From IMG/VR virus record IMGVR_UViG_2529292919_000024: a stretch of 36,266 nucleotides of DNA. The stretch is one strand, 5' to 3'. Both the position numbers and the translations under genes were made by a program. The notes beneath the pieces are model-generated. The model saw nothing but the letters and a program-made list of their open reading frames with translations. It had not been told where the DNA came from and ran no database searches. Shown here piece after piece: positions 836 through 14,808 of this stretch. This DNA comes from a virus (lineage: Duplodnaviria > Heunggongvirae > Uroviricota > Caudoviricetes). Within the stretch, counting starts at the first letter, position 1; each line of letters starts with the position of its first letter.

Positions 836-944
836 CTCACCTCCTTTGCATCAATTCGCCACTATCTTAAAAAACATCGTGGGTTAAGTGTGGTTATTAG
901 GGCATAATCGATCTGTATTACCGATCGATTTGATTGATTCGATC
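836..944 (-). promoter_or_regulatory. Pmom late promoter region with upstream Dam GATC cluster
   Basis: The minus-strand sense reads CGATGTTTTTTAAGAT, a T6 run abutting the -10-like TAAGAT (plus 864..874), about 25 nt upstream of the com ATG. Three GATC sites at 910, 923 and 941 overlap the gin stop, matching the Dam/OxyR-sensitive region described for Mu mom. The same T6 plus -10 arrangement recurs upstream of lys. Confidence 0.6.
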
Positions 945-10293: not shown

Positions 10294-12366
10294 TTACCAG
10301 CCTGTAATGTAGTTATCGCCCGCGTAAATATTCAGCCCCATACCGTCCTCGGTGACGCGGGAACTGGTCAGACGTAACCCCTCGCCAAGTTCGACGCGCA
10401 GCGAGGCTTCCGCATTCACTTTTTGTTCCTGCGGTTCCTTATCCGGGGCCGTCCATTTCTGATACAGGTCGGTTACAAAACCGCCCAGATACTCCCCGGC
10501 GACACTGCCCAGCGTGGCACCGGCAACCGTACCCAGCGGTCCGGCAAGGCTGCCAACGGCACCGCCGAGCCATGCACCGGCTGTACTGCCAATTGCGCCT
10601 GCTTTTTCATGGGGTGACGCCTGCTCATCCATCAGGACGGGGGCAAGCTGGAGTGCCCCCATTACCGGGCCACCCAGACGTGACAACGCACGACCGGCAC
10701 CTTTCCCCATCCAGCCCAGCGCCCCGGCACCTTTTGTCATAACCCGACCGATCGCACTGCCTGCAAGTTTGTTTCCGATACCGGAAAACCACCCGCCAAC
10801 AGCACGCCCGGCATCAGCCAGCTTTCCGACCGTTCCCGTAACCAGTTGCCCGGCAGCACTGCCTGCAAGCCTGCTCAGAAGACCGGATTTACCGGGTAAA
10901 GGTAATGGTGCAGGCCGTGCTGTTACCGGTACGCCGGGTGGGGGTAATGCCAGTACAGGGCGTGGTGCAGGTAATGCCAGCGGCTGTGGCCCGGACAGCA
11001 ATAACGGCTGGCGGGGTAACAGCGGGGCCATTCTTCCGCCGCTCCGTCCGCGACGACCGCCGCCACTCCCGTAGCCACCAAATCCACGGGGCCAGTTGAT
11101 GACAAACACACGCTGAATGCCGATACCCTGCAACAGCGTCTCAGACGTCATGGCATCCGGGACCGGCAGACCTGCCTGCCCACGTTTGCGGTTTCGCATC
11201 CAGCGCCACATACGACGCCCGGTTTTAAACGGATAACTGGCAACCTGCCATGAGGGTTTTGCCACAGCCCAGCCTGCTCTCAGGGCTTTATTGGCAAGCC
11301 AGACAGACACCAGAACAGCAGCCAGTTTTTTCAGGCTGACAATATTCTGGTCAACCCATGCCAGCGCATCTTTACCCGGTTTCAGCCAGCGCCATAATTC
11401 CTGTGCCGCGATTTTTACCGTTCTGAACGTGGTCAGAAATTTCTGACCAATGTTTTCTGCCAGTGCGTCAAGTTCCCCGGATTTATCCGCCATGTCGTGC
11501 CAGTTAAGCACCCGGCGCATCTCGTTCTTGATTTCTTCAAAAGGGCCGCTGTTTGCCACCTTTATGCGAAATTCAAGCAGGTTGGCTTCCATCTGGGCGA
11601 ACATCCCGTCCCAGGAGTTCATCGCACTGGCCTGTGCACCTTTTGACTGTTCTGACAGCGTTCTGAATACCGTCAGAATGGATTTCATGCCCAGCTTGCC
11701 CTTTGTACCCAGATCACGGATTTTTTTAACGTCCGTTCCCGTTGCATCCGCCAGCGCCTGATAAACGTTGATACCGTAACCGGTCAGCAGGTTGGCATCC
11801 GCCGCTGTGATTTGCTGGCGGGCAAACATCTGTTTCAGTTGCAGTGAGGCACCCTGTGCAGTGGGTAAATCCCAGCCGTGCATGGCCCCCTGATCCTGCA
11901 ACATGGTGATGAACTGTTTCGTCTGTTCATCCGTCATGCCGAAGCCTTTCGACGAACGGATCTCATCAAGAACACCACTCAGCCCCCACGTGGTGTCCTT
12001 CGCGTTCTGCTTCGCCCAGGCCATCATGGCCTGCGCTCTGGCCTTATCGCCGTGATACAGCGAGTTCATGGCGATGATCTGCTGCTCACGCTGGGCGGCT
12101 GCACCAATAAACAGTTTATTGGCGGTGTAACCCACGCCAGCGATACCCAGCGCCCCGGCTGACAGCATTCGGAATGTACGGGTTGACAGAGCCCCCATTC
12201 TGTCAATGGCACCAGAAACGCGCACAACCTCCATACGCAGGGCACGAAGGGAACTTTGCCCGCTACGGGACAGGGCGTTTATCTGGTTCGAATACTGGCG
12301 GGAACGCCGGGAAAGATTGCCATTAAGATCAATAATGACAGACGCCTTTAAGCGTTTCCCGGTCAT
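10294..12366 (-). CDS. Tail tape measure protein
   Basis: 690-aa ORF with an alpha-helical N-terminal part and a Gly/Ala/Pro-rich low-complexity C-terminal third. Positioned after sheath, tube and chaperone. AGGAAA RBS before the ATG. Confidence 0.85.
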
Positions 12367-12510
12367 AGAGATTTCCTGATTTAACGGTGATATTGAGAGA
12401 GGGTTTTAGCCTGCTGGCAGTGCCGGAAAAAGCGGGACAGCGGGAGAGACAAGGCCCATTCCGGGCCACTTTTCAGAATAACGCCAATCGCTGTCGCCGC
12501 TTTCTCAATA
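12367..12510 (-). other. Gap upstream of tape measure: candidate frameshift extension of the chaperone and/or late promoter
   Basis: 144 nt without a standard ORF. The +1 frame relative to the upstream gene is open from a G5 run near that gene's end right up to the tape-measure RBS. Position-wise a C-dependent late promoter could also sit here. Confidence 0.35.
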
Positions 12511-12945
12511 TCATTCCGGCACCGCAGCCACTCGCCCCCGTTCTTGCGTCAGCGATGCCGCCACAGCCATGTCGTGCATCTCTGTAGCCAGCGACAGACG
12601 CTGGAAGTCATCGACGGACAGCTTGCGCATCAGCGCCAGCGATAACGGGCCTTTGATGCAGCCCACGCTGGCAATCTGTCGGCGCAGCATTTCCAGTCCC
12701 ATCCGGGACGGGGAACTGACCAGCACCGGGCCTTCCTTGCTCATTACCAGCTTTTCAGCAGCCGCCTGTGCATCAATCAGATCGCCTGCGGTCAGTTCAC
12801 GCAGTGTCACGTCATACTGCATTTCAGTCTCGTCACCGGTGCCGAACGGCAGGCCGTCTTTCAGTTTCAGACCACCGGACTGAAGCTCAGCCACAATACT
12901 GTCACGCAGTTCCTGTGCTTCAGGACCTAAATTCATTTCGTCCAT
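12511..12945 (-). CDS. Tail assembly chaperone-position protein (Mu gp41-like)
   Basis: 144-aa acidic ORF between the tube gene and the tape-measure gene. Confidence 0.7.
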   Translation of the reverse strand: MDEMNLGPEAQELRDSIVAELQSGGLKLKDGLPFGTGDETEMQYDVTLRELTAGDLIDAQAAAEKLVMSKEGPVLVSSPSRMGLEMLRRQIASVGCIKGPLSLALMRKLSVDDFQRLSLATEMHDMAVAASLTQERGRVAAVPE

Positions 12946-12954
12946 TGTTTCCCC

Positions 12955-13311
12955 TTATGCAATGCGTTTGCTTTGTTTTGCCATCAGTACCAGCGAAATT
13001 TCGCCGCCGTCGTTTTTCGGTTCATCCGCCTGCCAGGCATTCGCCAGCATCCAGGTTTCACCGGTATCAGCCTGGAATTCGACGGTGATGTTTTCCCAGT
13101 CGATAATTTCATCCAGCCCGATGGGACCGCCCCCCGGAATTTTGCATTCCACTTTTGCGGCACGTGGTTTACCTTTCCAGCCATAAACCCGCGAGCCGGT
13201 CACTTCTTCACGGGTGATGCCGGAAGGCGTGAAGGAGGCACCTTCCATTGATTCAAGCTCCATGCCATTGACACGGATGAACGCCACCCCCTGACGCTGA
13301 TTTCCAGCCAT
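12955..13311 (-). CDS. M: Tail tube protein
   Basis: 118-aa ORF immediately after the sheath gene, the usual contractile-tail order. Confidence 0.8.
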   Translation of the reverse strand: MAGNQRQGVAFIRVNGMELESMEGASFTPSGITREEVTGSRVYGWKGKPRAAKVECKIPGGGPIGLDEIIDWENITVEFQADTGETWMLANAWQADEPKNDGGEISLVLMAKQSKRIA

Positions 13312-13320
13312 AAATGCTCC

Positions 13321-14808
13321 TTACAGAATGAACTGAACTTGTGCCGCGAAAATGCGGAACTGGTTAATCAGATTCGGGCCGCACAGCACATCAAGACGGT
13401 CTTTGTCGTCCTTGTTACGTGCCACATACAGCTCCTCTTTGAACGTGTCGAAATCCTCGACCAGTCCGGCGTTTTCCCATTCTTCAAACAGTGCCAGCAG
13501 CTCCGTTTTGATCACGGATGGCGTCACCACGGCCTGACCGGTGGCAAAGCGGGTGCCATCACTTGCCAGCTTGTAGTTCGGGAATTTCTGCGTGATGCGG
13601 GTTCGCAGCGAATAACGCAGATAACTCAGCGTGGCGATGGTATTCGCGTTCAGATAAGACGGATCGCTGTCACCGTACTTGTTTGTGCGGTACATCGTGA
13701 TCATGCGTTCAATCTGCATTTCACCACCATCATTCACGTTAAACGTGGAGATGCCGTCAAACAGCAGCGCATTACGTTCTGACCAGGTGAAACGATCCCC
13801 CACCGCAGGCGGCATTCTTCCGGGCAACGTCAGCGTCTGGAGTGGACGCGCCGGGTCGATGGAAAGCGCCTGGCTGGCAACGGCACACAGTGTGGCGGCG
13901 TACAGATATGACGGTTCCGGTGCACCGGCAATCCCCATACAGGAAATCAGATGGTCATTACGGCTGACACCAAACGTGGAAATATCCCCATACGTGCCGG
14001 ACAGCACTGTCACGGCAAAGCCATCAGCCTGATTGACCGGTCCCCAGCGTTCCTGCAATTCAGTGCGTAACAGATTCAGGTTCGGTTCATCGGTATAGGG
14101 CATCACAATATATTTGTATTGCAGATCGCCCATTCCCGCGATACTTGCGCTGATATCCGGGTTGCCATTTTTCCCGGAGGCGGCTTTGAATGCCGTGATA
14201 ATCCCGTAAGGGGTGGTTTCACCCGCGTAATAGTTCCAGCGCACGTCCACGGCAGATAATGCACCCGTAAATTTTGCACTCAGAACCACATCTGCATGGG
14301 TGTCATCATCCCCGCTGTCTGCGCGAACTTCTGCCGTCACCGGTAAATCAGGCTGGCCTTTGATTCGGGCAACCAGCAGGTCAGCCAGCGCCGCTCCCGT
14401 TGCACCTGCTGCGACAGATACCGCCAGTCGCTGACCGGCAATGTAAGTCACAAGCGAGCCGTTTTCGCCTGCCGTTCCTGACAGTGAGATTTCACCGACA
14501 GCAGCATTACCGGTGCCGTTTCCCTGCGGGATACACCACAGCTCCGCCACGCGGTTAGCGTTCAGGAATGCATCTGCCATCAGTGCCAGCATGGAACCCT
14601 GACCAAACGCCGCTCTGGCCTGTGAGCCGGAACGGATACGGACAGGCACGTCTGGTGCCGCACTGGCTTTACTTCCGCTTTGTCCGAACATCAGCACGCG
14701 CTGACGGGGGGCCGGTGTTCCGCTGACGGCATTACTGTTATCAAATTCGATATACGTCAGAGGAACGCGAACATCTGACGGGATCGCGTTAAATGAAATA
14801 TCGCTCAT
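13321..14808 (-). CDS. L: Tail sheath protein
   Basis: 495-aa ORF of the size and position of a myovirus sheath gene, with ATGA overlap to the upstream small ORF. Confidence 0.88.

Follow-up and report, generated by a model that had tools for sequence, protein, structure and literature searches.

What is encoded in the 144 nt (12367-12510) that lie between the tail assembly chaperone gene gp41 and the ATG of the tape-measure gene, in a 36,266-nt stretch of phage DNA that we analysed whole and call the window? An initial annotation, made from the sequence, had marked this interval with the extent given here and offered two readings for it: the translated end of a frameshifted chaperone, or a C-activated late promoter. 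We find that it is very probably the 3′ part of a recoded gp41 gene, in which a -2 slip gives the 188-aa protein FS-gp41. The window is the genome of a Mu/D108-type phage, whose genes lie on the minus strand. A query of 1.1 kb spanning the gap had 97.5% identity with phages Mu and D108 and as much as 98.4% with Mu-like Yersinia phages, and within the first 25 kb of the window D108 and Mu match along 96-97% of the length.

The gp41 gene stands between the tail tube and tape-measure genes, in the minus-strand order sheath, tube, gp41, tape measure (Table 1), and the identical gene order was found in one related contig with Pfam labels. The window's gp41 is 95% identical to that of Mu. It matched Pfam PF23746 Gp41_Mu with 116 bits (E 1.1e-33), exceeding the cut-off of 27, and phrog_508 'tail assembly chaperone' with E 1e-46. 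Its match to PF10109 Phage_TAC_7 (P2 E, Mu 41) scored 23.2 bits (E 7e-5) where the gathering score is 25, and a PF10109 match is precomputed for some gp41 homologues. The tape-measure protein has the TIGR02675 tape_meas_nterm domain (E 2.3e-13) and is also the tape measure in the Mu annotation; the position corresponding to its AGGA is annotated as the Mu_42 ribosome-binding site in the phage Mu record AF083977.

Table 1. Features around the interval between gp41 and the tape-measure gene (positions in the window).
Feature	Position	Strand	Basis or remark
Tail sheath gene	14808-13321	minus	
Tail tube gene	13311-12955	minus	
gp41, zero-frame tail assembly chaperone, 144 aa + TGA	12511..12945	minus	ORF and translation
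Shift site C GGG GGC GA	12532..12540	minus	zero frame CGG GGG CGA = Arg136-Gly137-Arg138
FS-gp41 second segment (GGC 12536-12534 through TAA 12383-12381)	12381..12536	minus	after -2 slip
gp41 stop TGA	12513-12511	minus	
AGGA ribosome-binding site of tape-measure gene	12374..12377	minus	read from sequence; 3 nt past extension stop
Tape-measure ATG	12366-12364	minus	
Tape-measure gene (gp42/Y, 690 aa)	10294..12366	minus	ORF, domain match, Mu annotation

The frame one base downstream of that of gp41 (the +1 frame) has 55 open codons, the first starting at 12548, directly behind a TGA (12551-12549), and the last followed by the TAA at 12383-12381. This bears out the initial description of about 50 open codons, of a CGGGGGC run near the gp41 stop (12540-12534, with its five Gs at 12539-12535) and of a TAA just ahead of the tape-measure ribosome-binding site; the TAA lies 3 nt ahead of the AGGA (12377-12374) and 14 nt ahead of the ATG. 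The locus holds a second ORF that overlaps the 3′ end of gp41, has no start of its own and ends at the tape-measure gene. Across the genes of this phage, 4.0% of +1-frame codons are stops, and the chance probability of the 43 stop-free codons beyond the gp41 stop is ~0.18. In one sequence alone the open frame is thus unremarkable, and by itself it is weak evidence; what makes it significant is the comparative data and the identity to phage Mu. Two mechanical ORFs also overlap the gap, one of 46 aa (12329-12469, minus strand) and one of 66 aa (12387-12587, plus strand). One of them is in the -1 frame and the other is antisense; since the -1 frame is closed early in relatives, they are most likely not genes.

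The shift site, C GGG GGC GA, differs from the canonical -1 heptamer X XXY YYZ. The motif GGGGGCGA occurs once in the whole 36-kb window, and not one base differs between the window and phage Mu from the slip site (12540-12532) through to the stop of the extension. In this phage's genes CGA and CGG account for 6% and 13% of Arg codons, and GGG for 18% of Gly codons. Most ribosomes on gp41 would end at its TGA and make the 144-aa chaperone. A minority would slip while the P site is occupied by GGG 12537-12535 and the A site by CGA 12534-12532, an Arg codon that is poorly decoded: the peptidyl-tRNA-Gly would move back two bases and re-pair perfectly with GGG 12539-12537, and decoding would restart at GGC 12536-12534 and continue for 51 codons to the TAA. 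The full product, join(12945..12535, 12536..12381) on the minus strand, would be the 188-aa FS-gp41, ...QERG-GEWLRCRNDIEK...QYHR.

This event is on record for phage Mu. Beside the plain gp41 CDS Mu_41, AF083977 has a joined CDS Mu_56 'tail assembly chaperone', whose note reads 'verified -2 translational frameshift in PMID 15469818' (Xu, Hendrix & Duda 2004). We built both possible Mu products, 188 aa from a -2 slip and 187 aa from a +1 slip, and searched for exact matches to each. Swiss-Prot P0DJY4 'Probable tail assembly protein FS-gp41' and GenBank UIW09302.1 both equal the 188-aa product (...QERG-GEWLRC...); the 187-aa product returned no deposited Mu entry. The frameshifted chaperone extension suspected initially thus matches a recoding event of phage Mu that is annotated in the databases and verified according to the note in the Mu record. 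The frame and its start at the G run had been read correctly, but the documented event is a -2 shift, with one extra Gly (188 rather than 187 aa). The Mu -2 shift has been called 'exceptional' among tail assembly genes (PMC4378225).

The finding is therefore already known: going by the Mu record, the -2 frameshift was shown in 2004, and it is in GenBank and Swiss-Prot. A genuine recoding event of a non-canonical kind can be recognised from raw sequence, and for biology nothing new is gained. A full-text literature search with GGGGGCGA returned unrelated primer and sequence matches only. Much of the motif conservation described below is probably already in Xu et al. (2004); our modest additions, which may partly repeat that paper, are that the motif is invariant across the family, that no stimulator was found and that a few variants have four Gs.

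We compared 96 loci with gp41 homologues of 40-99% amino acid identity, from viral contigs and from Kluyvera, Erwinia, Vibrio, Grimontia, Aeromonas, Aliivibrio, Pluralibacter and Bilophila genomes. For codon analysis 26 representatives were used, with mutual identity below 90% and identity to the window down to ~41%. GGGGGCGA was found once, in the same frame (CGG GGG CGA), in 90 of the 96 loci, and C GGG GGC GA is nearly unchanged in the gp41-family chaperones of Enterobacterales, Vibrionales, Aeromonadales and Bilophila prophages. Beyond the gp41 stop the +1 frame is open for 100-142 nt in most of the 96 loci, and the -1 frame shuts sooner than the +1 frame in nearly all. The slip-site codons are invariant among the representatives (CGG in 23/23 with Arg there, GGG in 26/26 and CGA in 26/26), while synonymous choice is free elsewhere, with 3-5 codons per column where Arg or Gly is otherwise conserved and 3-6 over all the other columns with conserved Arg, Gly, Leu, Ala, Ser, Val or Pro. 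Dual coding forces part of the CGA invariance, because the +1 frame needs G-[E/D] there, and selection for a slow A-site codon is thus only a possible factor.

The extension peptides, of 47-53 aa, start with GG[E/D] at the slip site and are homologous across the 26 representatives; their alignment has conserved hydrophobic spacing and an LPLxxL-type motif. Codon-position entropy in the extension is 1.51/1.12/1.69, and pairwise differences by codon position within the enterobacterial clade number 548/267/879, a coding substitution pattern. Conservation of the +1 frame across Mu-like phages, a comparison proposed along with the initial annotation, thus demonstrates coding constraint. The extension stop falls between -23 and +15 nt from the tape-measure ATG in 22/22 representatives that have that gene in the locus. 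Motif and extension are both under selection across the family.

In phage D108 the extension is annotated as a free-standing 48-aa protein, '41.5', with a CTG start (GQ357916 24019-24165; L002:974-1120), and PHROG 12783 gathers such fragments. That the extension is a separate small protein of this kind is nevertheless very improbable. We found no conserved start codon or start position in the +1 frame across the 26 representatives, no ribosome-binding site before the extension and, in the window, no ATG, GTG or TTG in this frame before extension codon 29; the homology of the extension begins exactly at the slip site. The window's extension matches phrog_12783 ('unknown function') with E 5e-30. 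This family is evidently a collection of mis-annotated extension fragments, and it and the D108 '41.5' are an annotation artefact of an unrecognised frameshift. In many Mu-like genomes the extension is labelled as a separate hypothetical ORF, or a 'gap' of 130-144 nt is left; GGGGGCGA in the CGG-GGG-CGA frame gives a simple rule for correct joined-CDS annotation.

We searched for stimulators of the slip. No stimulatory RNA structure was found downstream of the slip site, where minimum free energy z-scores were -0.2, +0.06 and -1.3 against shuffles; the consensus fold of the 26 representatives was empty (energy 0.0) and weak (-7.2) within the enterobacterial clade; and no upstream Shine-Dalgarno-like element was found at the slip site. 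The locus also differs from a canonical -1 frameshift, in that the window's -1 frame shuts 38 nt past the gp41 stop and conserved structure is lacking. A terminator scan returned the hairpin GGCCCGGAATGGGCC with a T-rich tail (12467-12453, minus strand), 72 nt downstream of the slip site and coinciding with conserved Gly-Pro-Glu-Trp-Ala codons. We rejected it as a signal, its stem being broken in L025 and L042 without compensation; it is probably a by-product of coding.

Several loci depart from the run of five Gs. L050-L052 have only four, in AGGGGCGA or TCGGGGCGA (at L050/L051:1866 and L052:1851), with the extension still in the +1 frame, and perfect -2 re-pairing is impossible there. The slip site at L025:1857 is GGGGGGGCGA, with seven Gs, and here too the extension is kept in the +1 frame. 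The lineages of L050-L052 and L025 might use a +1 shift instead of the -2 shift.

A different variant, GAACGGGGCGAG, again with four Gs and not five, was seen at L098:3405-3412 (a Logan ERR1010218 contig) and for proteins P0002, P0003 and P0031; its carriers are otherwise intact Mu-like prophage regions. It fuses gp41 and the extension in frame, into 187 aa, or 199 aa in a Serratia relative. Such an allele may be real, with constitutive fusion, or it may be an assembly error in a homopolymer; a real one would, by analogy with lambda, upset the short:long ratio. In-frame fusions with four Gs were also found in genome copies from Erwinia tracheiphila (L027:1901) and Kluyvera genomosp. 3 (L024/L043:1883 and 1951). 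In the Kluyvera copy a further G run, within the extension, carries a second frameshift, so this prophage gene looks decayed.

The in-frame alleles with four Gs encode exactly the 187-aa protein (...ERG-EWLRC...) that a +1 slip, of tRNA-Gly from GGG to GGC, would make in place of the -2 product. Such a slip would reach the same frame and the same extension, and it would suit L050-L052, whose four Gs leave -2 re-pairing imperfect. For the window we nonetheless consider it improbable. Re-pairing is with three of three bases after a -2 slip, as against two of three after a +1 slip. The two Gs upstream of GGG are conserved, which a +1 slip would not require; neither frame constrains the last base of CGG, but 23/23 have G there, as perfect -2 re-pairing demands and a +1 slip does not. 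Finally, the note in the Mu record gives the -2 shift as verified, and the deposited product has 188 aa with Gly-Gly. Sequence alone cannot tell the two slips apart, and for the -2 slip we rely on the experiment with Mu that this note cites.

We think it possible, though less likely than not, that C GGG GGC GA is a self-sufficient -2 signal that needs no stimulator, and that in L050-L052 a +1 slip has replaced the -2 slip at this site. The target frame would then be fixed while slip direction could evolve.

Productive transcriptional slippage in bacteria typically occurs on runs of ~7-9 A or T, for which five Gs are short. Slippage of RNA polymerase in the G5 run would yield transcripts with four or seven Gs that encode the fusion, with the same protein outcome (RGGEW from seven Gs), and assemblies with four-G and seven-G alleles do exist. 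We give this explanation very little credence, since besides the shortness of the run it leaves the invariance of the flanking C and CGA unexplained, and the note in AF083977 calls the event translational.

For a relative whose gp41 and extension are naturally fused, AlphaFold predicts (mean pLDDT 82.7) an alpha/beta domain at the N-terminus and, after it, two long helices in which the extension is included. The best viral structural match of this model was Mu FS-gp41 (E 1.8e-30); the Foldseek matches that came next, to annotated tail assembly and tape-measure chaperones, were weak (E 0.01-0.03). A Foldseek search of the PDB gave nothing below E 0.1, and a sequence search of solved structures gave 0 matches. 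The extension peptide matched no family in Pfam or NCBIfam, so a link to lambda T or P2 E' is not demonstrable.

Frameshifted chaperone pairs of other phages resemble this one in some respects. The lambda pair gpG/gpGT is made by a -1 slip on the heptanucleotide G GGA AAG, whereas here the slip would be -2 on C GGG GGC GA. Both pairs are encoded directly upstream of the tape-measure gene, as a short product and a rarer frameshift-extended one in overlapping frames, but there is no detectable sequence similarity between them and the Mu tail is contractile. The P2 pair gpE/gpE+E' is likewise a myovirus chaperone pair encoded between the tube and tape-measure genes, and is tied to gp41 by the weak PF10109 match; its shift is reportedly -1, and the Mu extension has no match to the P2 E' family. 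Arterivirus nsp2TF also arises from a programmed -2 slip that reaches the +1 frame, but on eukaryotic ribosomes, at another slippery sequence and with a viral protein as trans-activator, whereas we found no stimulator in the window. With gp41/FS-gp41 of phage Mu (Mu_41/Mu_56) the window shares the gene and its position; slip site, extension and spacer are identical except for one base just before the ATG, and the ~7 amino acid substitutions all fall in the N-terminal gp41 domain, leaving the recoding signal unchanged.

What the two proteins would do may be judged from the lambda G/GT model as summarised in PMC5009743, in which the presumed role of the pair is to hold the tape measure and recruit tube subunits. 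By this analogy the shared N-terminal domain would coat the tape-measure protein and the extension would recruit tail tube subunits, the slip frequency would fix the low long:short ratio needed for correct tail assembly, and neither gp41 nor FS-gp41 would stay in the virion. A cryo-EM study of Mu did not resolve gp41 in the particle (PMC11915804).

The interval had also been read, alternatively or additionally, as a C-activated late promoter, which would serve the tape-measure and downstream tail genes. Both strings quoted in favour of this exist: CTTTTTCCGGCACTGCCAGCAG is in the gap at 12432-12411 (minus strand) and TTTTTTAGACTGCCATCAG in the window's own Plys, and the former has a T-run followed by ACTGCCA.CAG, like the -10/+1 part of Plys. 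Mu late promoters have a -10 hexamer and a 16-bp dyad C-binding element centred at -43.5, with the conserved C-binding core CATAACCCC within it (PMC2582627). An alignment of the four annotated Mu late promoters gave us the core C[A/C]ATAA[C/T]C[A/C]C, whose only sense-strand matches in the window are at ~899 (Pmom), 9199 (PP), 18509 (PI) and 26082 (Plys), with none in 12367-12600, that is, in the gap or just upstream. With the window's four late promoters as its source, a position weight matrix scored the real sites at 49-54 and the best gap position at -16.9 (rank 1076 of 72,400 positions). Opposite the Plys -10 TAGACT the gap segment has GGCACT, and the local alignment of the gap with Plys was not above shuffled controls (P = 0.085). 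A promoter scan found no sigma-70-like site on the sense strand of 11800-13400, and the Mu literature and annotation have exactly four late promoters, all mapped elsewhere than the gap. Lacking both a C-binding core and a -10 hexamer, the late promoter is left unsupported, and we hold it to be extremely improbable. We rejected CTTTTTCCGGCACTGCCAGCAG as a promoter: it is coding sequence of the extension (RFFRHCQQ), conserved as such, and its resemblance to Plys is a 7-mer shared within coding sequence.

Among the window's own late promoters, Pmom (844-910, minus strand) differs from that of Mu in the C-binding element, which is CCCTAATAACC here and CCCCAATAACC in Mu, and in two further substitutions downstream.
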